Assembly (NCBI GenBank): GCA_964431835.1
Contig: CAYSKO010000005.1
Location: 52,167 to 116,166 of the forward strand
Source of the DNA: an uncultured Planctomycetia bacterium
GTDB lineage: Bacteria; Omnitrophota; Gorgyraeia; 2-02-FULL-51-18
Reading direction: 5' to 3'
DNA length: 64,000 nt
Shown here: positions 10,230 through 33,262 of the stretch, one piece after another
Position numbering within the stretch: position 1 is the stretch's first letter
Layout of the letters: each line of letters starts with the position of its first letter
Made by a program: the position numbers and the translations under genes
Notes under the pieces: model-generated
What the model saw: only the letters and a program-made list of their open reading frames with translations
Databases searched by the model: none
Told to the model about the DNA's origin: nothing

Positions 10230-10409
10230 TGGGTTAGGGCAAGTATACCCGCCGTCCGGCTCAAATTCAAAATAGAGACGATCCATAAAACTATATTATA
10301 AAAAGACTTATAAAAATCTTATTCTACGCTGACTCACTTTTGACTGGAAACGCTTAAAACAGGCCGTTTCCTCTATATACAGGGGCCTCCAGTGCTTTTT
10401 CCGATTCCT

Positions 10410-10438
10410 TTGACTTGGTTTTTCGTTTTCTGTACAAT
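10410..10438 (+). promoter_or_regulatory. sigma70-type promoter of the nuo-mrp cluster: -35 TTGACT (10410-10415), 17-nt spacer, -10 TACAAT (10433-10438)
   Basis: Near-consensus hexamers with optimal spacing lie 34 nt upstream of the nuoA ATG, in an AT-rich divergent region. Confidence 0.6.
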
Positions 10439-10471
10439 GGCTCCCATAAACCGTTCGGAGCACTTTTTTTC

Positions 10472-10837
10472 ATGACTTTATTAAACGATTATTCTTACGT
10501 CTTCGGATTTCTCGTCATCGGCGTCGGGTTCGTGGTCGTCAACACCCTCCTGCCCCTCCTGATCAGTCCGCGAAGCCGCGGTTCCCGCGCGAACGACCCG
10601 TACGAAAGCGGCGAAGTCCCGATCGGCGGCGCGTGGGTACAGTTCGACGTCAATTACTACCTCTTCGCATTGATCTTCATCGCCTTCGACGTCGAAGCCG
10701 CATTCCTTTTCCCGGTTCTTGCGGTGTACCGCGAGGTTCCGGGCTGGGGCGCGTTCGTCGAGGTCGCCGTTTTCCTCTTCATCCTGTCGTTCGCGATCCT
10801 CTACGCTTGGAAAAAAGGACTCTTCTCCTGGAAGTGA
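10472..10837 (+). CDS. nuoA: NADH-quinone oxidoreductase subunit A
   Basis: MTLLNDYSYVFGFLVIG...; the track ORF 10415 starts at a TTG inside the promoter, so ATG 10472 is preferred. Confidence 0.9.
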   Translation: MTLLNDYSYVFGFLVIGVGFVVVNTLLPLLISPRSRGSRANDPYESGEVPIGGAWVQFDVNYYLFALIFIAFDVEAAFLFPVLAVYREVPGWGAFVEVAVFLFILSFAILYAWKKGLFSWK

Positions 10838-10840
10838 TGC

Positions 10841-11509
10841 ATGGCCGATCCGATTAAAGAACCCCAGCTGTATAAAAACCCCGCTTACCTGCAGACCCAG
10901 TCGCCTGCGCCAGGAATCGTGAACCTTTTCCACGTCGAGGACGTGCTGAACATGGCCCGCGCCAATTCGCTTTGGCCGCTCACGTTCGGCCTCGCCTGCT
11001 GCGCCATCGAGATGATGGCCGGCGGCGCCGCGCGTTACGATCTCGACCGCTTCGGCTTCGGCGTGTTCCGTCCTTCGCCGCGCCAAGCGGACGTGATGAT
11101 CGTCTCGGGTACGATCTCGCGCAAGATGGTTCCCTGCATCAAAACGCTCTACGACCAGATGCCGTCTCCGAAATACGTGATCGCGATGGGCGGCTGCGCC
11201 ACCGCGGGTGGCCCGTTCAAATTCCCGGGCCAGTACGGCATTCTCGAGGGCATCGACAAGATCATTCCCGTGAACGTCTACATTCCCGGCTGCCCGCCGC
11301 GCCCCGAAGCGCTGATCGCCGGCATCCTCGAGCTTCAAAAGCAAATCAAAGCGGGCAACGTGCAAGGCGTGATGTCGCCGGCGGCCGTCAACGACTCTCA
11401 GGACGCGCGCCCCGCCGAATACAAAAACGCGGTCTCCCGCGCCGATTTCCGCAAACCCGCCGCTCCGGCCGCTCCCGCGGCTCCTGCGTCGGCGGAGCCG
11501 AAAGCCTAA
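10841..11509 (+). CDS. nuoB: NADH-quinone oxidoreductase subunit B (20 kDa, N2 cluster) with Ala/Pro-rich C-terminal tail
   Basis: [28 protein letters not shown] Cys motifs. Confidence 0.95.
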
Positions 11510-11512
11510 AAC

Positions 11513-13144
11513 GTGTCCCCCGTCGCTGAAAAAGACATGAAAGCCTGGCTCGTCTCGTCGGTGAAGCCCGACGAGTTCGCGGAAAAAGATCCGAAGTCGG
11601 GCGTTCTCTTCGAAGCTCTCGTCGGCCGCGAGCATATCCGGGAAGTCGCACGCGAATTCCGCACGCAGGGGTGGTTTCTCGAGTCGATTTCCATCGTCGA
11701 CTTCGCCGAATGCTTCGAGATCGTCTACCATTTCAACAAATGGGGCGTTGCCCGCCGAGCCTGCGTAAAGACGCTCGCCCTGAAGGCGGAAGGCGAAGCG
11801 GCGTCCGCTCCCTCGATCTCGGACGTCTTCCGCGCCGCCAACTGGCACGAGCGCGAGGCGTACGACATGTTCGGTCTCGTCTTCGAAGGCCACCCGAACC
11901 TGAAGCGCCTCCTTCTTCCCGAAACTTCGAAGATCCACCCGCTACGCAAGAGCTTCAAGGGCGAACCCAAGGGCTCCGACGTCGAGGACTCCCTGCGGCT
12001 CATCCAAGAAGACACCGAGGGCTTCGAGGTGCGCTACCCGAGCCAGCTCACGAAGAGCCAGAAGGATTACTACCTGAATCTCGGCCCTCAGCATCCGAGC
12101 ACGCACGGCGTCCTTCGCGTCCTTCTCCATTTAGACGGCGAGCGCGTGCTAGACGGCGAGCCGGTACTCGGCTACTCGCACCGCAACCAGGAAAAGATGT
12201 TCGAGATCCAGAATTACCTCGCCTGCTGGCCGCAGTTCGGCCGCCTCGATTACGTCGGCGCGATGGCGTTCAATTTCGGCTACGCCCACCTGATCGAAAA
12301 GGCGATGGGCATTGAAGCGACGCCCCGCGCCCAAGCGATCCGCGTCCTGGCGACGGAGCTAAACCGCATCTCCTCCCATCTCCTCTGGATGGGCACGTTC
12401 CTCCTCGATCTCGGGGCGTTCACGCCGTTCTTCTACTGCTTCGACGACCGCGAAAAGATCATCGACATCCTCGAGATGGCCACCGGCGAGCGCCTCACCT
12501 ACGACTACTTCCGTTTCGGCGGGCTCGATCACGACATCCCTGAGGAGATGCTCCCCGCCGTGAAGGCGTTCGTCCCCGAATTCAAGAAACGACTCAAGGA
12601 TTACCACAAGCTCGTCACGAAGAATCCAATCTTCATCTCGCGCACGCGGGGCCTCGGCGTCCTCACGAAGGACCAGGCCCTGAATTACGGCGTGAGCGGT
12701 CCCTGCTTGCGCGCCTCGGGCGTCCGCCAGGATCTTCGCCGCGACGAGCCCTATTCTATTTATCCCACGCTCGATTTTGACGTTCCTACCATGACGGACG
12801 GCGACGTCTGGTCGCGTTACACAATCCGTATGCGCGAGATGGAGGAGAGCCTGAAGATCGTCTCCCAGCTGGTGGAAAAAATCCCGGCCGGAGACGTCAC
12901 GCTCGGCAAGTTGCCGAAGAACGTGCCGAAGGGCGAATATTATTCCGCGGTCGAATCGGCGCGCGGCGCATTCGGCATCTATCTCGTCAGCGACGGCACG
13001 CTCAATCCCTACCGCATGAAACTGCGTACGCCCTCGTTCTGCAATTTGAGCGCGTTCAGCGAGATGATCCCCGGCTGCCTCCTCTCCGACGTGATCGCGA
13101 TCCTGGGCTCCATCGACATCGTTCTCCCGGAGATCGACCGGTGA
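11513..13144 (+). CDS. nuoCD: Fused NADH-quinone oxidoreductase subunits C and D
   Basis: NuoC motif [29 protein letters not shown], then Nuo[13 protein letters not shown]...RTPSF in one 543-aa frame. GTG start at 11513, alternative ATG at 11537. Confidence 0.9.
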
Positions 13145-14124
13145 CCGGAAACCCCGTCCTCGACGAGCTTCTGAAAATCGTCCTCTGGGGAACGCTCGTG
13201 ATCCTTTTCGTGTCCGTGAACGCGCTTTTCCTCGTCTGGGCCGAGCGCAAAATCTCGGCGCGCATCCAGCTACGCCAGGGCCCGCTTCACGTCGGCTTCC
13301 AGGGGACGCTGCAGACCGTGGCCGACGCGATCAAGCTCATCTCGAAGGAATTGACGCTTCCCAAATCCTCGGCCAAGAGCCTCTACATGCTCGCTCCGGT
13401 GCTCGTCTTCGCCCCGTCGATCGCGGCGTTTCTCGTGCTTCCGTTCTCGCCGGAAATGCCGATGCGCGATCTCAACATCGGCTTCCTCCTCATCTTCTCG
13501 CTCACGAACGTCACTTTCATCGGCGTCTTCCTCGCCGGCTGGGCCTCGAACTCCAAATACGCGCTCCTGGGCTCCATGCGCGCCATCGCGCAGAACATCT
13601 CTTACGAAATTCCCCTCCTTCTTTCCACGATGGGCGTCGTCCTCTGCGCGGGGACCCTCCAGATGTCCGGAATCGTCCGGGCCCAGGAGCACGGCTGGTT
13701 CCTTTTTAATGGCCAGGTGATCGCGTTCGTCGTCTTCATCGTCTCGGCACTCGCCGAGGCCAACCGTGCGCCATTCGACATTCCCGAGGCCGAATCCGAG
13801 CTCGTCGCCGGTTTCCACACCGAGTACTCGGGCATGCGGTTCGCGCTTTTTTTCCTCGGCGAGTACACGGCCGTCTTCATCTCATCCGCCGTGGCCGTGA
13901 CGCTTTTTCTCGGCGGCTGGAGCGGCCCGCTCCTTCCTCCGCCCGTCTGGTTCCTCCTTAAGACCTATTTGATCGTTTTCGTGGTGATGTGGATCCGGTG
14001 GACGTTTCCCCGCCTGCGCTCGGATCAGCTCATGGCGCTGGCCTGGAAGGTGCTGATTCCGTTCGCTCTCCTCAACATCCTTTTGACGGCGCTTTTTATC
14101 CAGCTGCAAAGGAGCCTCGCATGA
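13141..14124 (+). CDS. nuoH: NADH-quinone oxidoreductase subunit H
   Basis: GTG start overlapping the nuoCD stop (GTGA); typical NuoH TM sequence. Confidence 0.9.
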
Positions 14125-14687
14125 GCGTCGTCGGTCGCTATTTCAAAGACGTCTTCTCGGGTTTCTGGGCGCTCCTCGCGGGTATGGCCGTCACCGCGCG
14201 CTATTCGGTCAAACCCCCGGTCACGCTGATCTACCCCAAGGAGCGCATGCCTCTCAAGCACTTCAAGGGTCCCATCGCTTTCACGACCGACGAGAAGACA
14301 GGGGACCACAAGTGCATCGCCTGCAATGCCTGTATCAAGACCTGCCCGTCGCGCTGCATGTCGCTCGTCGCACAAAAAAGCGCTCTGGACGGAAAGCGCG
14401 TTCTCACGGACTTCAAAGTAAATTACATGCTCTGCAGCCTGTGTAGCCTGTGCATTGACGTCTGCCCCACCGACGCGCTGAAGCACGACTCCCCCAATTA
14501 CGACATGGTCGCCTCGAACCAGCGTGACATGCACATGGATCTCTTGAAGCCTTACCGCGACGCCGGCACGCCGCTCACGAAGATACCGGTGGTCGATCCC
14601 GCGGCCGCGGCGGCAAAGCCTTCGCCGACGAAGCCCGAGAACAATGCCGCGGACAAGCCGCTCAGCCCCGAGGAACCGAAATCTTGA
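14121..14687 (+). CDS. nuoI: NADH-quinone oxidoreductase subunit I (2x[4Fe-4S]) with Pro/Ala/Lys-rich C-terminal extension
   Basis: CIACNACIKTCP and CSLCSLCIDVCP; ATG 14121 overlaps the nuoH stop (ATGA). Confidence 0.9.
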   Translation: MSVVGRYFKDVFSGFWALLAGMAVTARYSVKPPVTLIYPKERMPLKHFKGPIAFTTDEKTGDHKCIACNACIKTCPSRCMSLVAQKSALDGKRVLTDFKVNYMLCSLCSLCIDVCPTDALKHDSPNYDMVASNQRDMHMDLLKPYRDAGTPLTKIPVVDPAAAAAKPSPTKPENNAADKPLSPEEPKS

Positions 14688-15181
14688 GCCTACCCGACGC
14701 CTTTTTCCTCTTCTTCGCGGGAATCACGCTGGGCGGAGCCGTTCTCGCGGTGACCTTGCGGAACGTCTTCTACAACGCGCTCTCCCTGATCCTCTGCCTG
14801 GCGGGTGTGGCGGGACTTTTCGTTTTCCTGAACAGCGAGTTCCTCGCGGTGATGGAGGTCATCATCTACATCGGCGCGATCTCCATCGCGATCCTCTTCG
14901 CGATCATGCTCTCCCAGCCTATGATGCCCGTAAAGGAGCCCTTAAACCGCGGGAAGGTCGCGCGCGCGGCGCTCGTGGCGGGTCTTCTTTTCCTCGGACT
15001 CTCGCGCGTCATCGGGCGTTCGCAGTGGTCCACGGCTCCGCTCGAGGGCGACTACTCGCTTCAGGGAATCGGCCGCATGCTGCTCGGAGCCAACATGATC
15101 CCGTTCGAGGTTGTTTCGCTCGTGCTCCTAGTCGCCATCATCGGTGCGCTGGTCCTCACGGGCTCGAAAGGACGCGGATGA
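14684..15181 (+). CDS. nuoJ: NADH-quinone oxidoreductase subunit J
   Basis: TTG start overlapping the nuoI stop; NuoJ-like TM protein. Confidence 0.8.
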   Translation: MSLPDAFFLFFAGITLGGAVLAVTLRNVFYNALSLILCLAGVAGLFVFLNSEFLAVMEVIIYIGAISIAILFAIMLSQPMMPVKEPLNRGKVARAALVAGLLFLGLSRVIGRSQWSTAPLEGDYSLQGIGRMLLGANMIPFEVVSLVLLVAIIGALVLTGSKGRG

Positions 15182-15489
15182 GCGAGAGTCTCGGCGCCTA
15201 TCTGTTCATTTCGACCGCCCTTTTCTGCTTGGGAGTATACGGCCTTCTCTCGCGGCGGAACCTCGTGGCGATGCTAATCTCGCTTGAGCTGATCCTGAAC
15301 TCTGCGAGCCTCAACTTCGTGGCGTTCAACAAGTTTTCGCTCATCAACAAGGCCGCCGGCCAGACCTTCGCGGTCTTCGTGATCGCGCTGGCCGCCGCCG
15401 AGGTCACGATCGGCTTGTCCCTGATTCTTCTTTTCCACCGTAAACGCGACTCGATCAACGTCGAGGACGCGGGAGAGATGAAAGGATGA
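15178..15489 (+). CDS. nuoK: NADH-quinone oxidoreductase subunit K
   Basis: MSESLGAYLFISTALFCLGVYGLLSRRNLVAMLISLELILN... with conserved Glu residues in TM helices; ATGA overlap with nuoJ. Confidence 0.85.
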   Translation: MSESLGAYLFISTALFCLGVYGLLSRRNLVAMLISLELILNSASLNFVAFNKFSLINKAAGQTFAVFVIALAAAEVTIGLSLILLFHRKRDSINVEDAGEMKG

Positions 15490-17396
15490 CAAGCGACCTC
15501 TTCCTCCTCTGGACGATCCAGCTTGCGCCGCTGGCGGCTTTCCTTCTCCTTTTCGTTCTGCCCAAGGGCGCGCGCCGCGCCGCGCCCGTCGTGGGCATGG
15601 TCTTCGCGTTCGCGGCCGCCGCGGCGTCGATCACGCTCCTTTTCTCACACGCGGGCGAACACGGCGGGTTCGTCTACGAATACAAGACGCTCTGGCTGCG
15701 GGTTACCGAGATGGCGCTTTGGCCGGGCGTCGTGATGCCCGAATACGTCCTTTCCGCCGGCTTCTTGGTCGATCCGCTCAACCTTCTCATGATCGCGATC
15801 GTCACCACGATCGCGTTCTTCGTGCAGATGTTCTCCTACTACTACATGGCGGAAGACCCGTCCAGGCCGCGCTACTTCGCTTTCCTGTCGTTCTTCTCTT
15901 TCGCGATGACGGGCTTGGTCCTCGCCTGCAACCTTCTGCAGACGTTCCTCTTCTGGGAACTCGTAGGACTGGCTTCTTACCTTCTGATCGGATTCTGGTA
16001 CGAGAAGCCGGCGGCGGCGACGGCCGCGCGCAAAGCGTTCGTTCTGAACCGTCTGGCGGATCTCGGTTTCTACCTCGGCATCGTTTTTCTCTTTTTCTTC
16101 GTCGGCACGCTCGATTTCACGGCGTTCCGCCCCGACGCGCTGCGCGAGGCGATGGGCTCCGGCTGGGCGGCCGCCGTGGGGCTCCTCGTCTTCATGGGCG
16201 TCATGGGCAAGTCCGCTCAATTTCCCTTCCACGTCTGGCTGCCAGACGCGATGGAAGGCCCCACCCCGGTTTCCGCCCTAATCCATTCGGCCACCATGGT
16301 TGCGGCGGGCGTGTTCCTCATGGCACGCGCCTTTGGTCTTTTCGCGGCTTCCGAAGCGGCCCTCACCGCGGCGCTCGTGGCCGGCGCGCTGACCGCGATA
16401 ACGGGCGCGCTCCTGGCGACCGTCCAGCGGGATATCAAGCGCATCCTCGCCTACTCGACCGTCAGCCAGCTCGGCCTCATGGTGATGGCGATGGGCGCGG
16501 GCTCTCCGGTCGCTGGGATGTTCCACCTGTCGACGCACGCGTTTTTCAAATCACTCCTTTTCCTCACGGCCGGCGCGTTCATCCACCGTTTCCATTCGAA
16601 CGACATCTGGGAAATCGCGCGTGCCGGCGGAAAAAAAGACAAGCTCGCTATGGCGGCGCTCACGCTCGGCCTCCTCTCGCTTTCGGGTATTCCGCCGCTC
16701 TCGGGCTTCTTCTCGAAGGACCTGCTCCTCGAAGCGCTGAGCGAGCGTTCTGGCTTCTTTTATTGGATCGGCGTCGCGGTGAGCTTCCTGACCGCGTTCT
16801 ATTCGTTCCGCCTTCTTTTCGTTCTCCTTTTCACGAAGCCGGGCCATGCGCCGCACGCCGCGCACGCGCACGCGCCGTCACCTTTCCTGAGCGCCTGCCG
16901 CGCGGTGCCGCTGGTTTCGCTCGCTTTGCTCTCGCTTCTGATCGGAGCGCTGGGAACGTCGTGGGGCGGATCGGCACTGCTCCACTGGCTCGGCGGTCAC
17001 GATGCGCACCTGGATCCGACGATCGCCGGCACGACGCTCGTTCTCGCTTCGATCGCGGTCGTCCTGGCTTTCTTTAAGTTCCGCGATCCCGCGGCAGCCG
17101 AAACGCGCCTCGAGGAAGAAGGCGGGTCCTGGAAGCGCGCGCTCCAGCATAAGTTCTACGTCGACGACGCGTACGAATTCCTCGTTAAGAGCGTCGGCCT
17201 GTCCTTCGCGGCGGCGCTCAACTGGATCGATAAACGGGTGTTCAACCGCCTTTTCGTCGATCGGACCTCCGGCGCCGTGCTCGGTCTCGGAAAGCTCCTC
17301 TCCCGCCTCCAGAGCGGCCTTCTCCAAGATTATCTCTCGCTGGCCGTGGGCGTCGGCATCGTCATTCTCCTTTTCGTATTGAAAGGAACGCCTTGA
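15486..17396 (+). CDS. nuoL: NADH-quinone oxidoreductase subunit L (antiporter-like)
   Basis: 636 aa with WLPDAMEGPTPVSALIHSATMV motif. Confidence 0.9.
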   Translation: MTSDLFLLWTIQLAPLAAFLLLFVLPKGARRAAPVVGMVFAFAAAAASITLLFSHAGEHGGFVYEYKTLWLRVTEMALWPGVVMPEYVLSAGFLVDPLNLLMIAIVTTIAFFVQMFSYYYMAEDPSRPRYFAFLSFFSFAMTGLVLACNLLQTFLFWELVGLASYLLIGFWYEKPAAATAARKAFVLNRLADLGFYLGIVFLFFFVGTLDFTAFRPDALREAMGSGWAAAVGLLVFMGVMGKSAQFPFHVWLPDAMEGPTPVSALIHSATMVAAGVFLMARAFGLFAASEAALTAALVAGALTAITGALLATVQRDIKRILAYSTVSQLGLMVMAMGAGSPVAGMFHLSTHAFFKSLLFLTAGAFIHRFHSNDIWEIARAGGKKDKLAMAALTLGLLSLSGIPPLSGFFSKDLLLEALSERSGFFYWIGVAVSFLTAFYSFRLLFVLLFTKPGHAPHAAHAHAPSPFLSACRAVPLVSLALLSLLIGALGTSWGGSALLHWLGGHDAHLDPTIAGTTLVLASIAVVLAFFKFRDPAAAETRLEEEGGSWKRALQHKFYVDDAYEFLVKSVGLSFAAALNWIDKRVFNRLFVDRTSGAVLGLGKLLSRLQSGLLQDYLSLAVGVGIVILLFVLKGTP

Positions 17397-18850
17397 GCTT
17401 CCCGATCCTGACCTCCATTCTCCTTTGCCCGGTCCTGGGTCTCCTGGCCGTTCTCCTGACGCCAGCTCGCATGGAAGGACTCGTGAAAGCGATTTCTCTG
17501 GCGACCGCCGCGGTTTCGCTCATTCTCTCGATCTTCCTCTGCATGGCTTTCGACGCGTCCAACCCCGGCTTTCAGATGGTCGAGTTCGTCGATTGGATGC
17601 CAAGCTACGGCGTGCATTACTCGATGGCGGTAGACGGCCTCAACGTGACGATGATTCTCCTCACCTCCATCGTCATCTTCTGCGGCATCCTCGTGTCGTG
17701 GGGCCTTAAATTCCGCGTGAAGGACTTCTTCGCGAACATGCTTTTCCTGGTTGCGGGCGTATTCGGCGTGTTCATGACGACGAACCTCTTCTTCTTCTTC
17801 CTGTTCTACGAGATCGCCGTGATCCCGATGTATCTCCTCATCGTGATCTGGGGCTCGACGAACAAGGAATACGCGGCCATGAAACTGACCCTTTACCTCC
17901 TCTTCGGAAGCGCGTTCATTTTCGCGGGCTTCCTGTACATGTATTCCCTGCCGGGGGCACATACTTTCGATCTAGTCGCGCTGAAAGAGAATGTCGCGTT
18001 CGCGCCCGACGTTCAAAATTGGCTCTTCCTCGCGCTTTTCATCGGCTTCGGCGTGCTGGCCGCCTGCTTCCCGTTCCACGTGTGGTCGCCCGAGGGCCAT
18101 GTCGCCGCCCCGACCGCCGCGAGTATGCTTCACGCGGGCGTTCTCATGAAACTCGGCGCGTTCGGCATCCTGCGGGTGGGCGTCTATCTGCTTCCCGACG
18201 GCGCTCGGTTCTGGGCGCCGCTCATCGCGGGTCTGGCGCTCTGCAACATCGTTTACGGTGCGTTCGTCGCCACGCAGCAGAAGGACCTTAAGTTCATCAT
18301 CGGCTTCTCGAGCGTCAGCCACATGGGCATCGTGCTTTTGGGCATCGCGACGATGACGGATGTCGGCTTCAACGGCGCGCTCTTCCAGATGTTCTCGCAC
18401 GGTCTCATGACCGCTCTTTTCTTCGCGTGTGTCGGGTGGATCTACGACGGCTGCCACACCCGCATGCTGGACGAGCTCGGGGGGCTTTCGAAGAAAGCAC
18501 CGAGAATCTCGGCGTTCTTCATCATCGCGGGCCTCTGCGGGCTCGGACTCCCGGGCATGGGTAGCTTCGTCGCCGAGCTTCTCGTCACGATCGCGGCCGT
18601 GAGCCGGTTCCCGGCGGTCGGCGTGATCTCCATCGTCGCGCTCCTCATCACCGCCTATTACGTCCTCACCGCGATCCAGAAGGCGTTCTACGGCCCCCCT
18701 TCGCCCCACACGGAACACCTGCACGACATCGGGTTCTTCCAGTTCATCCCGCGCGCGATCCTCGTGGGCGTCCTAGTTTTCTTCGGCGTGTTCCCTCAAG
18801 TTTTCATCGGTTTCGTCTCGGCCTCGACCAAGGCCCTCGTGGGAGCCTGA
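17393..18850 (+). CDS. nuoM: NADH-quinone oxidoreductase subunit M
   Basis: 485 aa antiporter-like; TTG start after a good SD (AAAGGAA). Confidence 0.85.
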   Translation: MSFPILTSILLCPVLGLLAVLLTPARMEGLVKAISLATAAVSLILSIFLCMAFDASNPGFQMVEFVDWMPSYGVHYSMAVDGLNVTMILLTSIVIFCGILVSWGLKFRVKDFFANMLFLVAGVFGVFMTTNLFFFFLFYEIAVIPMYLLIVIWGSTNKEYAAMKLTLYLLFGSAFIFAGFLYMYSLPGAHTFDLVALKENVAFAPDVQNWLFLALFIGFGVLAACFPFHVWSPEGHVAAPTAASMLHAGVLMKLGAFGILRVGVYLLPDGARFWAPLIAGLALCNIVYGAFVATQQKDLKFIIGFSSVSHMGIVLLGIATMTDVGFNGALFQMFSHGLMTALFFACVGWIYDGCHTRMLDELGGLSKKAPRISAFFIIAGLCGLGLPGMGSFVAELLVTIAAVSRFPAVGVISIVALLITAYYVLTAIQKAFYGPPSPHTEHLHDIGFFQFIPRAILVGVLVFFGVFPQVFIGFVSASTKALVGA

Positions 18851-18851
18851 C

Positions 18852-20273
18852 ATGCTGACTCTCCTCCTTCCCGAGATCCTGCTCGCGATCACGATCACGG
18901 CGCTTCTTTGCCGGATGCTGAGCCGCCAATCGGAGACCGAACCGCGCCTCTTCATGGCCGTGGCGGCGTGCCTTCTGGTCGCCGGAGCGGTCGTCTCCGT
19001 TTTTTTCGGGCCCGCGACGCTCTTCTACGCTTCGTACCGCGTGGATCTCCTCTCACAGGGCTTCAAGGTGATTCTCGCGGCGTCGCTCCTCTTCACGGTG
19101 CTCGCTTCGCGCGATCAGTTCTCGATCCAGGCCAATCGCCTGCCGGAATACTACTTCTTCCTCCTCACCGGTACGCTCGGAATGATGATGATGACGAGCG
19201 CGGCGGATCTCCTGACGCTCTACGTCTCGCTCGAGCTCTCGAGCTACTCGCTCTATCTCCTGACGGCGCTCCGGGACGAGCGCCGCACCACGGAGGCGAG
19301 CGTCAAATACGTGATCATCGGCGCGGCGGTAAGCGGCATCATGCTCTGGGGCTTGAGCCTCATGGCCGGCGTCTCGGGAACGTTCCTCTTAGCCGGCATG
19401 GCGCAAAACGCTCCCGCGCTCCTCGCCGAGCCGGCATTCGCGGCGGGACTCGCGCTCACGCTCTTCGCGGTCCTCTTCAAGCTCTCGGCTTTCCCCGTTC
19501 ACGCGTGGGCGCCGGACGCCTACGAGGCCGCCTCGACCCCCGTGACCGCGTTCCTGGCGACTGCCTCGAAAGCCGCCGCGGTAGCCGTCATGATCCGCCT
19601 TCTCATGCTGACCGGCCTCACACCGGGTCTGACCGCGGCCTTCGGCGCGCTCGCCGTGGCGTCGATGACGCTCGGCAACGCCGCCGCGCTCGTCCAGCGG
19701 GACGTCAAACGCCTGCTCGCCTATTCGAGCGTCGCGCAGGCGGGCTATCTTCTCGTGGGCCTCGCGGCCGTCTCGGGTGAAGGGTTCTCCTCCGCGTTCT
19801 TCTACGCGCTCGCTTACGCCGTCATGAACGCGGGTGCGTTCACGGTGGTGCTCGCGGTCGCGCGCGCGTCGGCCAACGACAATCCGAAGCTCTCCGATTT
19901 CGACGGCCTCGCCGAGCGCTCGCCGCTCCTGGGGCTCCTCCTTCTCGTCAGCCTCCTTTCGCTCGCGGGCATCCCGCCGCTGGCCGGCTTCACGGGCAAG
20001 TGGATCCTTTTCTCGGCGGCCATGGACAAGGGCCGCTGGCTTCTCGTCCTTTGGGCGGTTCTCAATAGCGTCGTGTCGCTCTTTTACTACCTCACGCTCG
20101 TGAAGCACGCCTATCTCGAGAAGCCTAAGACACTCGCGCCCGTCGGGGCGTCGCCGCGCGTGCGCGTGTTGGCTATCGGACTCTGCGTGGCGATCGTTCT
20201 TCTCGGTCTTTTCCCGAATTTCTTCGTCACCTTCGCGCAGCAGGCCGTCGTTTCGGCCGCGACGCCTTGGTAA
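18852..20273 (+). CDS. nuoN: NADH-quinone oxidoreductase subunit N
   Basis: 473 aa antiporter-like subunit. Confidence 0.85.
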   Translation: MLTLLLPEILLAITITALLCRMLSRQSETEPRLFMAVAACLLVAGAVVSVFFGPATLFYASYRVDLLSQGFKVILAASLLFTVLASRDQFSIQANRLPEYYFFLLTGTLGMMMMTSAADLLTLYVSLELSSYSLYLLTALRDERRTTEASVKYVIIGAAVSGIMLWGLSLMAGVSGTFLLAGMAQNAPALLAEPAFAAGLALTLFAVLFKLSAFPVHAWAPDAYEAASTPVTAFLATASKAAAVAVMIRLLMLTGLTPGLTAAFGALAVASMTLGNAAALVQRDVKRLLAYSSVAQAGYLLVGLAAVSGEGFSSAFFYALAYAVMNAGAFTVVLAVARASANDNPKLSDFDGLAERSPLLGLLLLVSLLSLAGIPPLAGFTGKWILFSAAMDKGRWLLVLWAVLNSVVSLFYYLTLVKHAYLEKPKTLAPVGASPRVRVLAIGLCVAIVLLGLFPNFFVTFAQQAVVSAATPW

Positions 20274-20401
20274 ATCCAGGGAGCCGGAACCCAAACACGG
20301 CGAAACTCGGCCTGAAGGCCGCTCTTCCAGCCCTTTTACCAGCTTCTCTTTTTTCTTTCCTCGCGGCTCTCGCGCCTTCCGCCTTGTCGGATGGCAGGCG
20401 G

Positions 20402-22528
20402 ATGTCTTTTGAATGGGCTCCCAGTATCGGCTTAGACATGACTTTCCGCCTCGACGGACTGGGCCTTCTCTTCGCCCTGCTGATTACGGGCATCGGAACG
20501 GCGGTGTGCTTTTACGCCCGCGGCTACCTCGACGGCGATCGGCGCCTCGGTCGTTTTTACGCCTTCCTGTACTTCTTCATGGCGTCCATGCTGGGGCTCG
20601 TACTAGCGGATAATTTCATCCTTTTCTTCGTGTTTTGGGAATTGACCGGCATCTCCTCGTATTTTCTCATCGGCTTCGACCATGAGAAAGAGTCCAGCAG
20701 GACCTCGGCGCTACAGGCACTTCTCGTTACGGGAGGCGGCGGTCTGGCGATGCTGGCCGGTCTTCTCTGCGTTTCGATGATCACGGGCGCGTCCAGGTTC
20801 AGCGAGCTCGATAGTCTCGGCTTCTCCGCCGCTTCCCTGGTTCCGCCCGGCGTGCTTGCGCTCGTCCTGGCCGGCGCCTTCACGAAGTCCGCGCAGTTTC
20901 CTTTCCATTTTTGGCTTCCCAACGCGATGACGGCGCCGGCGCCGGTAAGCGCGTACCTCCACTCGTCCACCATGGTGAAAGCCGGAATTTATCTCATGCT
21001 CCGCCTTTCGCCTTCGTTTTCCGGTGACTCTTTCTGGCGTTTCTCCCTCACCGCGATCGGTGCCGCTACGGTGGCTACGGGCGCGGTGCTTGCCGTCAAG
21101 CAAACGGACATGAAACGATCTCTCGCCTACCTCACGGTCAGCGCGCTGGGAATGATGACGATGATGATCGGCGCCGGTGCCGAAGGCGCAATTCACGCCG
21201 CGGTGGCGTTTCTCGTGGCGCACGCCTTCTACAAGGCGTCGCTTTTCATGTGCGCCGGATCGGTGGATCACGCGACGCACGAAAGGAATCCCGAGGCGTT
21301 AACGGGTCTTGCGCGCTTTATGCCGTTCACGGCTGTAGCCGCCGTCCTCGCGGGTGCGGCGATGGCGTCCTTGCCGCTGTTTCTTTCGTTCCCGGCCAAG
21401 GAAGCGGTGCTCGAAGCGGGTCTGCACTCGCCCGCACCCTGGATCGCCGGGATCGCCGCGGGTGCGGGAGCCGTTTACGCGGCGATGGCGTGGCTGCTCG
21501 GCGTCAAACCCTTCGGGGGAGCTGTAGAAAGCGCGAAAACACACGGCCACGAGGTCTCATTCCCAATGTACGTGCCGCCTCTCGCCCTCGCGGCGTGCGG
21601 CCTCGTTTTCGGCGTGTTTCCGGATCTGGTCGCGCCGTTCGTCGACGGCGCCGTCCGGTCCGCGGGCGGCTCGCCGGGGAAACTCGTGGCATGGCACGGG
21701 TTCACGCCGGCGCTTTTTCTCAGCCTGGGAGGCTTGGTCGTGGGCGCCGTCCTTTATCGCGGGCGGTTTGCCGCACGGAAAGCGCTCGCGCCCCTTGACC
21801 TTCCGGGATGGCCCGGGCCGGAACGCCTGTATCGGACGGTCCTAGAGGCGACGGTCGCCGGTGCCGGCCGCCTGACGCGGACCTTACAGAACGGGTATCT
21901 GAGGCGGTATCTCCGCGTGACGTTCGCTTCCGTTTCGGCACTTCTCGCCGTCGCGCTTTTCCGCTCCGGGAATCTGCCTTCACCTGCCCCGGATACGGCG
22001 CGGGCGTATGAGATCGTCCTTTCGTTCTTCATCTGCGCCGCCGCTCTCGCGGCCGTGTTGGCACGCTCGCGGTTCGTCGTCGTCGCCATGCTGGGATCCG
22101 TCGGTATGAGCATCACCCTTCTCTTCGTCCTTTACGGAGCGCCCGATCTCGCGATGACGCAGTTCACGGTTGAAACGTTGACCGTCATTCTCCTCGCCCT
22201 CGTTATGCACCGGTTACCTCCCTTCGCGCCCGCCTATTCCTCCGTGCCGCAACGCGCGATCGACCTCCTGCTCGCGGGAGGCTTTGGATTCCTGATGTCC
22301 GTCCTGACGTGGATATCGTTCACGGACGCGCGGCCGCAGCTTTCGGCCGTATCGGCGTTCTTTTCCGAGAACAGCCTTCCGGCGGCCCACGGACGCAACA
22401 TCGTGAACGTCATCCTGGTTGATTTCAGAGGACTCGACACGCTGGGCGAGATCACCGTTTTGGCGGTGGCGGGTGTCGGCGTGTTCTCCCTGGTCAAAGC
22501 CGCGGCCTCGAGGGGATCATCCCGATGA
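20402..22528 (+). CDS. mrpA: Mrp-type cation/proton antiporter subunit A (NuoL-like plus C-terminal MrpB-like domain), N-terminally short
   Basis: LEWIPSLG-equivalent [73 protein letters not shown] 20402 is preferred over the track start 20267. Confidence 0.8.
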
Positions 22529-22935
22529 ATTCGCTGATTCTCAGGACGGTCGCCGAGTTCCTGAAACCCCTTTTAATCCTTTTTTCCCTTTTCCTCTTGT
22601 TCCGCGGACATCACGAGCCAGGAGGCGGATTCACGGGCGGCCTCGTCGCCGGCGCGGCGTACGTCTTGCACGCTCTCACGCGCGGTACGAATGCCACTCG
22701 CGCGCTGATCGTCGATCCGCGGCTATTGGTCTCCATCGGGCTTCTCACCGCTCTCTCCAGCGGGCTCTTTTCCGTCCTCTCCGGCCTTCCGTTCATGACC
22801 GGCATTTGGGCGAAGCTCGACTTGCCGGTCTTCGGAGCGCTCGAGATCGGCACTCCGATCGTTTTCGACGTGGGCGTTTACTTGGTGGTCGTGGGAACGA
22901 CGCTCACGATGTTTTTGGCGCTGGCGGACGACTGA
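22525..22935 (+). CDS. mrpB: Mrp antiporter subunit B
   Basis: 136 aa TM protein; ATGA overlap with mrpA. Confidence 0.75.
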
Positions 22936-22936
22936 C

Positions 22937-23284
22937 GTGGCGATCCTTTTCTGCGTAGTCGTCGGGTTCCTCTACGCGGCAGCACTCTACATGTTGCTGA
23001 GCCGTAGCGTTGTGAAACTGCTGATGGGTCTCATCCTCCTGTCCCATGCGACGAACCTGCTCATCTTCTCGGCCGGCCGGCCCGTGCGAGGCGGCGTACC
23101 GCTCGTGCCACCCGGCGCGGCAGCACCGTCCCAACCGTTCCCGGATCCGCTTGCCCAGGCCATGATCCTCACCGCCATCGTCATCAGCTTCGGCGTTCTC
23201 GCCTTCGCGCTCGTCCTCGTCTACCGCTGCCACGCCGCCACCGGCAGCGACGACGTCGACGAACTCAGGAACACCGAATTGTGA
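22937..23284 (+). CDS. mrpC: Mrp antiporter subunit C (NuoK-like)
   Basis: 115 aa, GTG start. Confidence 0.75.
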
Positions 23285-24768
23285 ACGTGCTACTCGCGCT
23301 CCCCATCGTCGTGCCCATGGCGGCCGCCGCGGTGTCCCTCGCGTTTCGACGCTCGCCGAAGGTCCAGTACGCGGCGGGCGCGGTTTCCTCCGCCGCGGGA
23401 CTGGCCGTCGCGGTCGGAATATTCTTCAACGTCTCGCGGGAGGGCATTCTCAAGCTGGAAATCGGAAATTGGCCCGCGCCGTTCGGCATCGTGCTCGTCG
23501 CCGACCTCTTCAGCGCCATTATGCTTTTGGTCTCCACCGTGATCGCGGCGGCCGTTTTTGTGTATTCGACAGCCTCGACGGACGAAGAAAGGCGCTCGCT
23601 CGGCTTCTATCCCCTACTCCAGGTGCTGCTCATGGGCGTCTACGGCGCCTTCATGACGGGCGACCTGTTCAACCTTTACGTTTGGTTCGAGGTCATGCTG
23701 ATGGCTTCGTTCGTCCTGCTTTCCCTCGGAGGCGGCAGGGCCCAGATCGAAGGCGCGATCAAATACCTGGCCCTGAACCTGATCTCGTCGGCTTTTTTTC
23801 TGGCCGCGACCGCCGTGCTGTACGGGATCACAGGGACCGTGAATTTCGCGGAGCTCGCCCGCCAGCTCGACGGACAATCCGGGTCGGTTACGGTCGTCGC
23901 GATGCTGTTCCTTGTCGCTTTTTCGATCAAAGCGGCGGCATTTCCGTTTTTCTTTTGGCTTCCGGCGTCTTATCATACGCCCCCCGTGGCCGTTTCGGCG
24001 GTGTTCGCGGGTCTGCTCACGAAGGTCGGCGTATACGCTCTCGTGCGCGTGTTTACCCTGCTTTTCGTCGGGGACACGGCGTTCACGCACGGCATCATCC
24101 TATGGATGGCGGCGTTCACGATGATCGTCGGCGTGTTGGGCGCCGTCAGTCAGAACGATGCGAGGCGGGTCTTATCCTTCCATATCGTCAGCCAGATAGG
24201 GTACATGCTCATGGGATTGGGAATCTTCACTCCGGCGGCGCTGGCCGGTTGCGTCTTCTACATCTTTCATCACATGCTTGTGAAAACCAATCTCTTCCTG
24301 GTCGCCGGAATCGCCGAAAAGACTCTAGGTACGTTCGAATTGAAAAAAATGGGCGGGTTGTACGCCTCCTCCCCGCTCCTCGCCGGTCTTTTTTTGGTAT
24401 CCGCCCTCTCGCTCGCCGGCCTGCCACCGCTTTCGGGATTTTTCGCCAAATTGATCCTGATAAAAAGCGGAATCGAGGCGGGCGCCGGGTGGGTGTCCGC
24501 AGTGGCCCTCATCGTGGGGCTGTTGACGCTCTTTTCAATGACGAAAATCTGGAACGAGGCGTTCTGGAAACCGCTGCCTGCGTCGTCCGGGGCGACCAAT
24601 GGCGGGCGACCCGCCTTCGCATGGATCGCCCCGGTGGCGCTGCTCGCCGCGTGCACCGTGGCTATCGGGCTCGCAGCCGGGCCGGCTTACGATCTGTCAT
24701 TGCGCACGGCAACGCAGCTCATGGACCGCGGCGCTTACGTTCAAGCGGTTCTCGGGGACGGGTCATGA
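23281..24768 (+). CDS. mrpD: Mrp antiporter subunit D (NuoM/N-like)
   Basis: 495 aa; GTGA overlap with mrpC. Confidence 0.85.
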
Positions 24769-25238
24769 AATTTCTGCTATGGAACGTTTTCCTGGCTCTG
24801 GCGTGGGTCGCGGTGACGGGCAGCCTGACGGCCGCCAATCTTGCGGCCGGATTCGCGCTGGGTTACAGCACGCTGTGGGTCACGACATCGGGCCCGGGGA
24901 AGGCCACTTATTTTTCGAAGCTCAAGCACGTCGTCAAATTCGCGAGCTTCCTCGGCTACGACCTCGTCGTCTCGGCGCTGCAGGTCGCATGGAACGTCCT
25001 TACGCCGAAAAGCGGGATCCGTCCGGGCGTCATTGCCATCCCCATCGAGTTGAAGACGGCCGCCGAAATCGTCATTCTCGCCAATTCCATCACGCTGACG
25101 CCCGGGACCCTTACGCTGGACATCTCCGAAGACAAAAAGACGCTGTTCGTGCACGCGATATTCATCGACGATCCCGCGCGTTTCCGCGCGGAAATACGCG
25201 ACGGCATCGAAAAGCGAACCGCGGAGCTGATGAAGTGA
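24765..25238 (+). CDS. mrpE: Mrp antiporter subunit E
   Basis: [19 protein letters not shown]..., 157 aa; ATGA overlap with mrpD. Confidence 0.7.
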   Translation: MKFLLWNVFLALAWVAVTGSLTAANLAAGFALGYSTLWVTTSGPGKATYFSKLKHVVKFASFLGYDLVVSALQVAWNVLTPKSGIRPGVIAIPIELKTAAEIVILANSITLTPGTLTLDISEDKKTLFVHAIFIDDPARFRAEIRDGIEKRTAELMK

Positions 25239-25516
25239 TTCCCGTCCTCGCGGTGGGGTCCGCATTCACGTGGACGACCTGCTTCATGGTCGTCGGCCTG
25301 CTGCTCGCCTTCATCAGGCTGCTGCGCGGCCCTAGCCTCTGCGACCGCATCGTCGCCCTCGATCTCATGATGACGCTTTCTGTCGGAATCATCGGTCTCC
25401 GCTCCATCCAAACCGGACAATCCGTTTTTCTTTCAGTGATCGCCGTGATGGCCCTGATCGCTTTCCTCGGAACGATAGGATTCGTCTATTACGTCGGGAA
25501 AAGGATATCCTCATGA
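25235..25516 (+). CDS. mrpF: Mrp antiporter subunit F
   Basis: GTG start overlapping the mrpE stop; 93-aa 3-TM protein. Confidence 0.65.
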   Translation: MIPVLAVGSAFTWTTCFMVVGLLLAFIRLLRGPSLCDRIVALDLMMTLSVGIIGLRSIQTGQSVFLSVIAVMALIAFLGTIGFVYYVGKRISS

Positions 25517-25857
25517 AAGAGCTCGTCGTCGTCCTGTTGATTATGACGGGTTCCGTCTTTTCGCTGATCGCGTCGATAGGAATCATGAACATGCCGGACT
25601 TGTTCACCCGGATGCATGCGGCGACGAAAGCCGGGACGCTGGGTGTGGGCTTCATCCTATGCGGGGTAGCGGTGCATTTTTCGCAGACGGGCGTGACCAT
25701 GCTTGTCCTCGCCACGATCGGCTTCATCGTTCTCACCGCGCCGATCGCGGCGCACATGATCGGACGCGCCGCGTATTACACGGGCGTGCCGTTATGGAAG
25801 GATTCCGTGATGGATGAACTGAGGCCGGAATACCACAAGCGGGCGCGAGACCGCTAA
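25513..25857 (+). CDS. mrpG: Mrp antiporter subunit G
   Basis: MKELVVVLLIMTGSVFSLIASIGIMNMPDLFTRMHAATKAGTLGVG... Confidence 0.8.
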   Translation: MKELVVVLLIMTGSVFSLIASIGIMNMPDLFTRMHAATKAGTLGVGFILCGVAVHFSQTGVTMLVLATIGFIVLTAPIAAHMIGRAAYYTGVPLWKDSVMDELRPEYHKRARDR

Positions 25858-25886
25858 AAAGACGTCCGGGCGACGCTTCGGCCGAA

Positions 25887-26741
25887 TCAGGGCTTCCGGA
25901 TGGTGACGACCCTGTTCCCCTTGAACGAGGGCACGAGGAGCTCATTTTTTTTGCGGTCGTAGGCGATATCCGCCGGCGAGGTAAGACCTTGCTGGTACAC
26001 CGAAAGCACGCCGCGGCCGTAGTTGGGCACGAGGTAGATCTCCCCCTTTTCAAAGCTCGAGACGTACAGGTTTCCTGCTGAATCGAAATCGATGCCGTCC
26101 AGCGTATGCAGCCCGCGCTTCAAGACATGCACCCGCCGTGAAGGGTCGATCTCGAGAATCCGCCCGGTTTCCCAGGTGACGGCCATGAGGTTCTTGGACT
26201 TCGGGTTGAAGAGGAGTCCGCTCGGGCTGCCGAGCTCCTGGCTCTCCAAGTACACGCTCGCCTTGTGGCCGTCCTTCGTGTCGATCTTGAAAATCCGGTT
26301 GGTCATGGTATCGCTTACGTAAAGCGCGCCCTGGGCGTCGGCCACGAGGTCGTTCAGGAAGCGCGCGCGGAACTTCGAAAGGTCTACGACCACGGAGGGC
26401 TTGCGCGTCTTCCGGTCGAAACCCTTCACCGTATCGACATCCGTCACGTACAGCGTGCGCCCCACGATCGCCATCCCCTTCGGCGCGTTCAGCGACAGCT
26501 CATCCTTGCGCCCGCCCATGAATTTCTGGATCACGATGCTGCCGCTCGAGCTGATCTTCGAGATGTAGCCGTTCCCGTCTTTTTCGTTCATCGTGCCGTT
26601 GGAATTGGAAACGTAATACGAGCCGTCTTCGGGATCGACGATGACGCTTTTGGGCGCCTCGAAATTGGAGAGCGAGAAAGCCGCCGCCGGCGACACGGCC
26701 GTCAGGACGAACGTTGAAAAAAGAAGCAAAAATCGTTTCAT
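25887..26741 (-). CDS. Secreted six-bladed beta-propeller protein (SMP-30/gluconolactonase/LRE- or NHL-like)
   Basis: Signal peptide MKRFLLLFSTFVLTAVSPAAA; repeated LYVTD/LYVSD blade motifs. Confidence 0.6.
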   Translation of the reverse strand: MKRFLLLFSTFVLTAVSPAAAFSLSNFEAPKSVIVDPEDGSYYVSNSNGTMNEKDGNGYISKISSSGSIVIQKFMGGRKDELSLNAPKGMAIVGRTLYVTDVDTVKGFDRKTRKPSVVVDLSKFRARFLNDLVADAQGALYVSDTMTNRIFKIDTKDGHKASVYLESQELGSPSGLLFNPKSKNLMAVTWETGRILEIDPSRRVHVLKRGLHTLDGIDFDSAGNLYVSSFEKGEIYLVPNYGRGVLSVYQQGLTSPADIAYDRKKNELLVPSFKGNRVVTIRKP

Positions 26742-31566: not shown

Positions 31567-32478
31567 TCAAATGTCCTCGTGATCGTGCGAGACGGGTTCG
31601 ATGTGAACGATCACATCGTTCACGCCCGGGATCTCGCGCCGGATTTCGCGTTCGATGATGTTAGACAAGCGGTGCGCCGCTTGGACGGTCATGCCGTCGT
31701 CCACCACGACATGAAGATCGACGTAGGCCTCTTCCTTCCGGCCGCGCGCGCGGATCTCATGGCAGTCGCGCACCCCCTCCACCCGGCGGACGATCGCGTC
31801 GATCGCCTCGGTCTGAATCGGCGCCTTGTCGAGAAGCACGTCGGAGCTCGTCTTTAGGAGCCGGAGCGCGATCGTGACAATGATCGTCGCGATGACGAAC
31901 GCCAGGATGGCGTCGATTTTGGGGAAACCCAGCCGCAGTCCAGCCAGACCCGCCAATACCGACACCGTCACGAAGACGTCCGAAGCGGTGTGCCAGGCGT
32001 CCGCTCTTAAAAGCTCGCTTTTCAGCTCGTCGGCTTTGCGGCGCTCGTACCACGCCACGAACAGATTAACGACGAGCGTGGCGCCCATGATCGCGAAGCT
32101 GGCGCCGGTGACGCGCGGCGAGCGGTCTTCCATAAAAGCCGAAATCGCGTCCCGGTAGATGCCGAAAGAAACGGCGAACAACAGGAACGCGATGATCGAT
32201 GACGCGAACGTCTCGTATTTCTGGTGACCGTAATGGTGGTCGAAATCGGCCGGATGGCGCGCGAGCGAAATTCCTACTAGGCCGATCACGTTCGAGGCAC
32301 CGTCGGAGAAGGAATGCAGGCCGTCGGCGAAGATCGCGGAACTGTGAATCTTGTAGCCCAGTAATACCTTAAGGAGCGCCACCGTCCAGTTGAGCACGAG
32401 GACCGTCCAAAGAACTCGGAGGATCTCCCGGTGTCGTTCGGGCCGCGGCGCAATCCGTGGATCCGCCAAAGCGGCCAT
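31567..32478 (-). CDS. Cation diffusion facilitator family metal efflux transporter
   Basis: HSFSDGASN, HHYGHQ, HTASDVFVTVSVL; cytoplasmic C-terminal domain. Confidence 0.8.
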   Translation of the reverse strand: MAALADPRIAPRPERHREILRVLWTVLVLNWTVALLKVLLGYKIHSSAIFADGLHSFSDGASNVIGLVGISLARHPADFDHHYGHQKYETFASSIIAFLLFAVSFGIYRDAISAFMEDRSPRVTGASFAIMGATLVVNLFVAWYERRKADELKSELLRADAWHTASDVFVTVSVLAGLAGLRLGFPKIDAILAFVIATIIVTIALRLLKTSSDVLLDKAPIQTEAIDAIVRRVEGVRDCHEIRARGRKEEAYVDLHVVVDDGMTVQAAHRLSNIIEREIRREIPGVNDVIVHIEPVSHDHEDI

Positions 32479-32833: not shown

Positions 32834-33262
32834 TTAGGAGGTTTTTTTGGCATCGACGGCGACGCCGAGCTTCCGGATCCCGGCCTGCTTCGCCGTGTCG
32901 AGCACCTTCACGAGGGCCTCCACCGAGGCGGACTTGTCGGCTTTCACCACGAGACCCGCGGATTTAAGCGTCTGGGCGCGGGAGGCGAATTCTTTTTTGA
33001 GGGCGCTCGCGGCCACGCGCCGGCCCCCTACGAAAACCTCGTTCCCCGAGGTGACGAAAACGACCAGTGGCTCCTCCTCTTTCACGCCTGGCGTGGCCGC
33101 AGACTCCCCCGCCGGCAGGCTGACGCGGATCGCGTCCCTCGTTCCCTTCACCATCGAAAGCGACACCATGACGAACGTTGCCAGAAGAAAAAAGACGATA
33201 TCGATGAGCGGGACGATCTCGATACGCGGCTTCCGGCGTTTCTTGGCGGAGGAAAGGTCCAC
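32834..33262 (-). CDS. exbD: Biopolymer transport protein ExbD/TolR
   Basis: EIVPLIDIVFFLLATFVMVS. Confidence 0.8.
   Translation of the reverse strand: MDLSSAKKRRKPRIEIVPLIDIVFFLLATFVMVSLSMVKGTRDAIRVSLPAGESAATPGVKEEEPLVVFVTSGNEVFVGGRRVAASALKKEFASRAQTLKSAGLVVKADKSASVEALVKVLDTAKQAGIRKLGVAVDAKKTS

Follow-up and report, generated by a model that had tools for sequence, protein, structure and literature searches.

Layout of the nuo-mrp cluster

We analyzed a 64,000-nucleotide (nt) stretch of DNA, hereafter the window, from an uncultured Planctomycetia bacterium (GTDB lineage Bacteria; Omnitrophota; Gorgyraeia; 2-02-FULL-51-18; assembly GCA_964431835.1, contig CAYSKO010000005.1, positions 52,167 to 116,166 of the forward strand), focusing on a cluster in which the genes of a complex I-like enzyme (nuo) are followed on the same strand by those of an Mrp antiporter (mrp). 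The cluster occupies 10472-25857 on the plus strand and consists of 17 head-to-tail open reading frames (ORFs) that encode 18 canonical subunits, NuoC and NuoD being fused, in the order nuoA-B-CD-H-I-J-K-L-M-N and then mrpA-B-C-D-E-F-G. Pfam assigned all 17 ORFs to families (the first ten Nuo, the last seven Mrp), and the top NCBIfam matches agree for the mrp genes, NuoCD and NuoL. An initial annotation, made from the letters of the window, had described an eighteen-gene co-oriented cluster with a fused NuoCD, no NuoEFG, tight junctions and a complete mrpABCDEFG directly after nuoN; all of this is borne out at the same positions, except that eighteen is the count of subunits rather than of ORFs. 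Within each set, neighboring genes are joined by 4-nt start/stop overlaps or by spacers of 1-3 nt, and the exception is a spacer of 128 nt between nuoN and mrpA (20274-20401, plus strand), a distance that presumes an mrpA start at ATG 20402. Nucleotide composition exhibits no break between the nuo and mrp parts.

The nuo part comprises nuoA (10472-10837, 121 amino acids (aa); PF00507, Oxidored_q4, E = 3e-29), nuoB (10841-11509, 222 aa; PF01058, Oxidored_q6, E = 1.3e-28), whose translation contains the CC...C...C cysteine motif expected of the carrier of cluster N2, and the single fused ORF nuoCD (11513-13144, 543 aa from GTG 11513; PF00329, Complex1_30kDa, and PF00346, Complex1_49kDa), for which the JGI gene call uses a later start at 11537 (535 aa). 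These are followed by nuoH (13141-14124, 327 aa; PF00146, E = 7e-118), nuoI (14121-14687, 188 aa; Fer4 families, with two CxxCxxCxxxCP motifs in its translation, as for 2x[4Fe-4S]), nuoJ (14684-15181, 165 aa; PF00499), nuoK (15178-15489, 103 aa; PF00420), nuoL (15486-17396, 636 aa; PF00662 and PF00361; NCBIfam NDH_I_L), nuoM (17393-18850, 485 aa; PF00361) and nuoN (18852-20273, 473 aa; PF00361), with nuoJ and nuoM both using TTG starts that overlap the stop of the preceding gene. NuoN is full length, its homologs covering 98-100% of it, and NuoL is as well, including the C-terminal part: its match to NDH_I_L (519 bits, cutoff 407) runs over profile positions 2-626 of 630.

The mrp part begins with mrpA (20402-22528, 708 aa from ATG 20402, or 753 aa from TTG 20267; PF00662, PF00361, MbhD and MbhE) and continues with mrpB (22525-22935, 136 aa; PF04039, MnhB; NF009163, 161 bits, cutoff 148), the NuoK-like mrpC (22937-23284, 115 aa; PF00420; NF009302, Na+/H+ antiporter subunit C, E = 4e-44), mrpD (23281-24768, 495 aa; PF00361; NF009306, 563 bits, cutoff 542), mrpE (24765-25238, 157 aa; PF01899, MNHE, E = 4e-42), mrpF (25235-25516, 93 aa, GTG start; PF04066, MrpF_PhaF) and mrpG (25513-25857, 114 aa; PF03334, PhaG_MnhG_YufB; NF009314, 134 bits, cutoff 102), which is the last gene of the cluster. 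This is a group-1 Mrp set, with seven separate genes in the order A to G, the NCBIfam models for subunits A-G as top matches and two Proton_antipo_M proteins (MrpA and MrpD), of which MrpA retains its MbhD/MbhE C-terminal part. Codon usage is normal in all seven genes (GC content at third codon positions, GC3, 0.75-0.82), their junctions overlap, and the catalytic-type Glu, Lys and His columns of MrpA are invariant against its homologs. Several of the subunits score below the NCBIfam equivalog cutoffs (827 bits vs. 937 for MrpA), and homologs at about 50% identity are drawn from many phyla. From these family assignments we infer that the Mrp set would carry out Na+(K+)/H+ antiport. It shares its seven genes, their order, subunit families, MbhD/MbhE and the charged residues of MrpA with the group-1 (CPA3) systems of Bacillus and Anoxybacillus flavithermus, as described in PMC5703873 and PMC7419157, and differs from them in an MrpA that is missing its first one or two transmembrane (TM) helices and in having no upstream region of its own, lying as it does directly after nuoN.

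Returning to the enzyme that resembles complex I, all 11 subunits (NuoA, B, C, D, H, I, J, K, L, M and N) are encoded together with Pfam matches above the gathering score, NuoCD also matches the NCBIfam NuoD model, and nothing lies between nuoD and nuoH, the nuoCD stop overlapping the nuoH start at 13141-13144. A scan of the 20 larger ORFs elsewhere in the window found no NuoE, NuoF or NuoG domain. Judged by its motifs and grouping, the enzyme is a complex I of the quinone-reducing type rather than a hydrogenase. The best solved relatives of NuoCD are bacterial complex I NuoC/D proteins (E = 1e-108 to 1e-99), with far weaker matches to formate hydrogenlyase (1e-45) and MBH (1e-41); its GPQHPSTHG and GYSHR motifs align to the quinone-site His and Tyr motifs of Escherichia coli NuoCD; neither the translation nor the alignment of NuoD contains the NiFe cysteines; and the cysteines for N2 in NuoB and for the two 4Fe-4S clusters in NuoI can be read in the translations. 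We also considered the "2M" or extended complex I, which reportedly (Chadwick et al. 2018) has a second nuoM and an enlarged NuoL with an MrpA-like extension, and rejected it, the window having one nuoM and a NuoL of standard NDH_I_L length.

The absence of the N-module, to which the initial annotation had implicitly attached novelty, is not new, since the 11-subunit NuoEFG-less architecture is widespread and long described. Enzymes of this kind in Desulfitobacterium hafniense (nuoABCDHIJKLMN), Chlorobi, Bacteroides and the cyanobacteria (NDH-1) have the same subunits and no N-module, and share with the window conserved Q-module cofactor motifs and a compact operon (PMC3144371, Moparthi & Hagerhall 2011; PMC11238625); the window differs in its C/D fusion, which is also found in other bacteria such as E. 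coli, and in the seven-gene Mrp set appended at the 3' end. A preprint covering 176 complete Omnitrophota genomes reports nuoG in 0 of them and other core subunits in roughly 11 (10.64898/2026.06.07.730766), which fits an 11-subunit form in a minority of Omnitrophota. For the electron donor of the 11-subunit enzymes the usual candidate is ferredoxin (PMC3144371, PMC11238625), and the donor proposed in the initial annotation, ferredoxin or flavodoxin rather than NADH, is the standard choice for this class and the most likely one here. Slight guilt-by-association support for it comes from two outgroup loci, L091 and L092 (L-numbers are labels of homologous loci fetched for comparison), which have NuoN 43-47% identical to that of the window and the same fused-CD, EFG-less nuo operon, and which carry an ORF of ~1190 aa directly after nuoN on the same strand (L092, 11447-15112; L091, 11555-15139). 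The ORF is a pyruvate:ferredoxin/flavodoxin oxidoreductase by Pfam in L092, and its L091 counterpart is putatively the same enzyme.

Transcription and the nuoN-mrpA junction

Upstream of nuoA lies a sigma-70-type promoter-like site, TTGACT-17 nt-TACAAT (10410-10438, plus strand), divergent from a giant minus-strand gene and matching the consensus at 10 of 12 positions. The -35 and -10 hexamers, their spacing, and the GGAG and ATG of nuoA are all kept in three relatives (L004, L088 and L089) within a spacer that is overall 48% identical, and conservation against such a background offers reasonable phylogenetic-footprint support for a real promoter, as the initial annotation had proposed. An alternative nuoA start at TTG 10415 was rejected: it sits inside the promoter-like site, and it is ATG 10472 with its GGAG that is conserved in the relatives.

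Within the nuoN-mrpA spacer, motif and consensus scans detected no terminator-like or promoter-like motif, the predicted fold is unremarkable (z = -0.82), and the junction has no Rfam match. With nothing in the junction that looks like a terminator or promoter, and with the conserved site ahead of nuoA, a single nuo-mrp transcript is the simplest reading of the sequence, in line with the initial annotation. At the other end, mrpG is separated from a convergent SGL/NHL-repeat gene by 29 nt (25858-25886). The T-run of the sole terminator-like hairpin in this gap (25876-25862) is on the minus strand, so that the hairpin would serve the SGL gene; the search turned up no intrinsic terminator motif that would end the nuo-mrp array.

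The initial annotation was right that the 128 nt after nuoN contain no hairpin or T-run; what it treated as a gap is, on closer inspection, an open extension of the mrpA frame, which reaches back as far as TTG 20267 and shares 7 nt with the end of nuoN, its stop included. Our first idea, that the spacer is simply the true 5' end of mrpA, was set aside, as its codon usage looks non-coding: its synonymous-codon score (-0.325) and GC3 (0.57) fall below those of all 4333 genic 44-codon windows from the cluster and equal the off-frame mean. The spacer also has no period-3 GC pattern, there is no purine-rich Shine-Dalgarno sequence before TTG 20267 and an AGG-type sequence does precede ATG 20402, two independent gene callers picked ATG 20402 or 20438, and an open frame of 45 codons has a calculated chance of roughly 25% at the local GC content. 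The near-invariant Trp (W50) is encoded between ATG 20402 and the JGI start at 20438, which places the mrpA start at or before 20402. We therefore consider that the original mrpA 5' end probably survives in the spacer as a decaying remnant that is no longer translated, with MrpA made from ATG 20402 and thus predicted to be without its first two canonical helices.

A start at TTG 20267, which would couple mrpA translationally to nuoN with no gap and with only the first helix (TM1) lost, is a tenable but less probable account of the same DNA. BLASTP homologs cover 96-99% of the 753-aa ORF, the translated spacer aligns with the second helix (TM2) of ~767-aa MrpA homologs, and a hidden Markov model of homolog N-termini scores the spacer peptide at 14.6 bits, above all 1000 of 1000 shuffles. 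In addition, residue 19 of the 753-aa ORF, where the NCBIfam match to NF009287 begins, aligns to profile position 30; nuoJ and nuoM provide precedents for TTG at stop-overlapping junctions; and the MrpA of another locus, L166, has no TM1 but does have a TM2 whose codon usage is normal. The choice between the two starts concerns the anatomy of the junction only. With either of them, the mrp genes begin within 128 nt of nuoN, and nothing in between resembles a transcriptional stop.

Canonical MrpA has about 21 TM helices, with TM1-3 at the N-terminus ahead of the Proton_antipo_N region. In the window, the Proton_antipo_N match (PF00662) of the product from ATG 20402 starts at residue 8, and the ~767-aa homologs have roughly 60 extra N-terminal residues; even the longest possible mrpA ORF contains no TM1, so that MrpA is short at its N-terminus and otherwise complete. 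This shortening is shared with the nearest mrp cluster found elsewhere, L166 (54-67% identity across all seven genes), which does not adjoin nuo, having an unrelated gene upstream and isocitrate dehydrogenase downstream. As the stand-alone L166 MrpA likewise has no helix 1, the N-terminal shortening began before the linkage to nuo, and we rejected the idea that TM1 was removed as a scar of the nuo junction. As a side observation on L166, its public MrpA call starts inside helix 3 (region 851-1132) and is too short, because MrpA conservation can be followed upstream as far as GTG 878 or 908.

The position after nuoN in related genomes

We next compared the cluster with homologous loci. The region 8852-30273 of the window is 100% identical to one JGI metagenome contig and two Logan contigs, which are the window's own copies; the source samples are JGI 3300020057, SRR6448212 and SRR6448209. 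Beyond these, the best NuoN relatives are 53-65% identical, and those named by source are mostly Candidatus Omnitrophica/Omnitrophota. We compared 12 distinct close relatives, whose concatenated NuoM+NuoN are 69-74% identical to those of the window, and all 12 share its neighborhood, namely a giant minus-strand gene, nuoA-N on the plus strand, and then minus-strand SGL/NHL, PUA-methyltransferase, YacP, helix-turn-helix and AsmA genes, the same five that come after mrpG in the window. The right edge of the variable slot is marked by the convergent SGL/NHL-repeat gene (25887-26741, minus strand; synteny in L004, L086-L089 and L167-L171), which in the relatives directly adjoins either nuoN or an NhaD-like gene.

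The content of the slot between these edges differs across the clade. In seven relatives (L004/L005, L086, L167, L168, L169, L171 and L172) it is empty, with nuoN adjoining the convergent gene; in five it holds one plus-strand CitMHS_2 (PF16980) gene encoding 422-428 aa (L006, 2924-3298; L087, 3807-5063; L088, 11423-12697; L089, 11416-12702; L170, 8425-9693); and in the window lineage only it holds mrpA-G. The CitMHS_2 gene starts 3 nt after the nuoN stop in L088, overlaps it by 4 nt in L089 and L170, and otherwise follows after a gap of a few nt. By annotation it is a "sodium:proton antiporter" (NCBI) or "NhaD/arsenite permease-like" (JGI); searches with the protein found no PDB relative, no matching NCBIfam model and no useful paper. 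At least 21 further contigs with NuoN relatives are identical in size to contigs carrying CitMHS_2 relatives, which suggests that adjacency of nuoN and CitMHS_2 is common in the clade. In a neighbor-joining tree of NuoM+NuoN, the empty and NhaD-like states are interleaved (L087 and L086, for instance, pair at 96% bootstrap), and the window lineage branches as sister to the relatives sampled, although support at the deep nodes is weak.

For a broader background we used 106 other nuoN loci, each followed by at least 3 kb of sequence, taken from the matches listed in NuoN profile and sequence scans of genome and metagenome contigs (mostly distant complex I, with five close). Among these, none of the 106 carries Mrp-specific genes, which are present only in the window's own copies. 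The nuo-mrp linkage is thus real but lineage-specific rather than conserved: the synteny comparison suggested in the initial annotation found no mrp at the slot in the 12 close relatives and a nearest mrp cluster that is not beside nuo. We also found no description of a nuo-mrp operon, or of complex I together with Mrp in Omnitrophota, in the literature searched; papers on Antarctic-lake Omnitrophota link Mrp to a group 4g hydrogenase, not to Nuo.

Such a distribution invites the view that the juxtaposition is neutral, the mrp genes having arrived through rearrangement or horizontal transfer at a convergent intergenic site that tolerates insertions, where they would have their own promoter or be decaying. 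The slot does behave as an indel hotspot, with occupied and empty states interleaved, MrpA has lost its canonical N-terminus next to a spacer resembling a degraded 5' end, and the phyla of the nearest mrp homologs are many. Against this view stand seven intact genes whose junctions overlap, whose codons are normal and whose MrpA keeps its catalytic-type columns, an orientation and spacing that fit continuation of the operon, and a spacer containing no promoter-like motif. Composition provides no anomaly relative to nuo, and chance would hardly explain why the slot is repeatedly filled with a different antiporter-annotated gene that is coupled to the nuoN stop. Taken together, we consider neutral juxtaposition unlikely. 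The linkage, rare and specific to one lineage as it is, is most simply explained by co-regulation.

Proposed function and relation to known systems

The explanation that best accounts for these observations, to which we assign a probability of roughly 70%, is that a probably ferredoxin-fed 11-subunit complex I is co-transcribed with an independent Mrp antiporter, the linkage being an add-on at the variable slot and the spacer a relic of mrpA. Under this explanation, the complex I-like enzyme would be fed by a low-potential carrier, for which reduced ferredoxin or flavodoxin is most likely, and would reduce membrane quinone and pump protons, and Mrp would spend part of the resulting proton gradient to expel Na+ (or exchange K+), yielding sodium or pH homeostasis or a sodium-motive force. 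Both gene sets would be transcribed from the conserved nuoA promoter, and their products would form separate membrane complexes coupled solely via the ion circuit. The recurrence of a different antiporter-annotated gene in the slot suggests recurrent selection to co-express the enzyme with an antiporter, and the co-regulated bioenergetic modules that the initial annotation offered as one option are thus the favored one.

The other option offered there was physical, with complex I and Mrp forming a Na+/H+-coupled supercomplex or an Mbh/Mbx-like hybrid. In such an arrangement Mrp would dock on complex I's membrane arm, for example with the shortened MrpA at the distal NuoL end, to give one redox-driven Na+/H+ machine. 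The tight, co-oriented packing of 17 genes without a terminator motif and the departure of the MrpA N-terminus from the canonical form are compatible with this, as is the homology of the two systems, with Mbh-type enzymes holding an integrated Mrp-like module (PMC8165549, PMC7419157). Both sets are, however, complete and canonical, with a full-length NuoL and an MrpA that has its MbhD/E part, and the N-terminal shortening recurs in the stand-alone MrpA of L166 and so is not tied to nuo linkage. Moreover, neither the 12 close relatives nor the L166 cluster links nuo to mrp, and the transporter that occupies the slot in relatives is structurally unrelated and single-subunit, which is not what reliance on a specific docking interface would predict and points to ion-circuit coupling or co-expression instead. 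We regard a physical supercomplex as most improbable. A related proposal, that the clade's complex I is obligatorily paired with a Na+/H+ exchanger on the same transcript (NhaD-like or Mrp) and acts as a net redox-driven sodium pump, in its strongest form with the shortened MrpA docked on the membrane arm, strikes us as very unlikely too.

Comparison with the Mbh/Mbx/MBS enzymes points the same way. As described in PMC8165549 and PMC7684303, these likewise join Mrp-type membrane subunits to a redox module whose parts are related to NuoB, C, D, I and H, and reach the same conceptual outcome, conversion of a redox-driven proton gradient to a sodium gradient. They do so as a single complex that has one shared antiporter-like set, lacks both NuoA and NuoJ, and carries a catalytic subunit of NiFe or modified type, whereas the window encodes a full complex I membrane arm, a full Mrp set and a NuoD of the quinone-reducing type. 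A hybrid of this kind was rejected for the window on the presence of NuoA and NuoJ, of three complex-I antiporter-like subunits besides MrpA and MrpD, and of a complex I-type NuoD. One locus that came up as a NuoN relative, L136, does hold an Mbh/Mbx-like cluster (7263-14444), in which mrpE, F, G, B, C and D-like genes precede NuoB-, NuoD- and NuoH-like genes, and it makes a useful contrast to the window's two complete sets.

The nearest precedent for such an operon is that of Rhodothermus marinus, whose complex I (nqo) gene cluster reportedly includes an Na+/H+ antiporter gene, nhaD, that is transcribed with it (Melo et al., BBA 2005). There too a complex I operon reportedly contains or adjoins an antiporter gene, the two presumably being expressed together, and the nearest counterpart is the NhaD-like gene after nuoN in the relatives; this gene and nhaD are likened by name and position, with no orthology implied. 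The R. marinus enzyme is a 14-subunit NADH-dependent one with a single-subunit antiporter, as against 11 subunits and a seven-subunit Mrp in the window. PMC9408914 cites the R. marinus antiporter as Melo et al. 2006.

Several points weigh against the explanation we favor. The antiporter function of CitMHS_2 comes from database names, and the Pfam name of the family is "putative citrate transport"; the neighbor-joining tree accommodates replacement of an NhaD-like gene by Mrp as readily as insertion of Mrp into an empty slot. Consensus scanning leaves room for a weak internal promoter in the 3' end of nuoN or in the spacer, and the evidence on the spacer conflicts, TM2 homology and the open frame favoring TTG 20267 and codon usage and the Shine-Dalgarno sequence favoring ATG 20402. 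Both the electron donor and the quinone are ones that we infer, and a NuoEF-like module may be encoded elsewhere in the genome. Finally, that an MrpA without TM1-2 may work is our assumption.

The wider window adds some context. The giant minus-strand ORF divergent from nuoA begins at 10286 and extends beyond the window's first letter, staying free of stops for at least 3428 codons (the JGI call makes it 4873 aa) and giving Pkinase, FlmR_OhkR_N and methyltransferase domain matches; its N-terminus is kept at the same position in L088 and L089 (48-53% identity), and very long proteins are a feature of Omnitrophota according to a 2026 preprint. Downstream of the cluster, and within 20 kb of it, are genes for a CDF cation-efflux protein (31567-32478, minus strand), an MgtE Mg2+ channel (37880-39301, minus strand) and an 863-aa CPA-type Na_H_Exchanger protein with a TrkA_C domain (40590-43181, plus strand). 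The last of these implies that the cell would have at least one further cation/proton exchanger. For five ORFs of 208-538 aa, Pfam gave nothing at E <= 1e-5 (32847-34463, 44297-45166 and 45624-46490 on the plus strand; 36792-37418 and 48847-49923 on the minus strand).

Within one clade, then, the position after nuoN holds either of two unrelated transporters (Mrp or the antiporter-annotated CitMHS_2) or nothing at all, a natural experiment in matching a proton-pumping complex I to sodium handling. This bears on the old debate over Na+ transport linked to complex I, and on the origin story in which complex I and the Mbh-type enzymes arose as a redox module joined to an Mrp antiporter. It also serves as a caution against reading a supercomplex into the mere adjacency of systems that are homologous. 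If the two complexes did associate, the cluster would be a living intermediate of the joining of a redox module with Mrp, re-enacting an Mbh/Mbx-type fusion; if they do not, as is likely, it would be an example of operon growth by the addition of a functionally related module.

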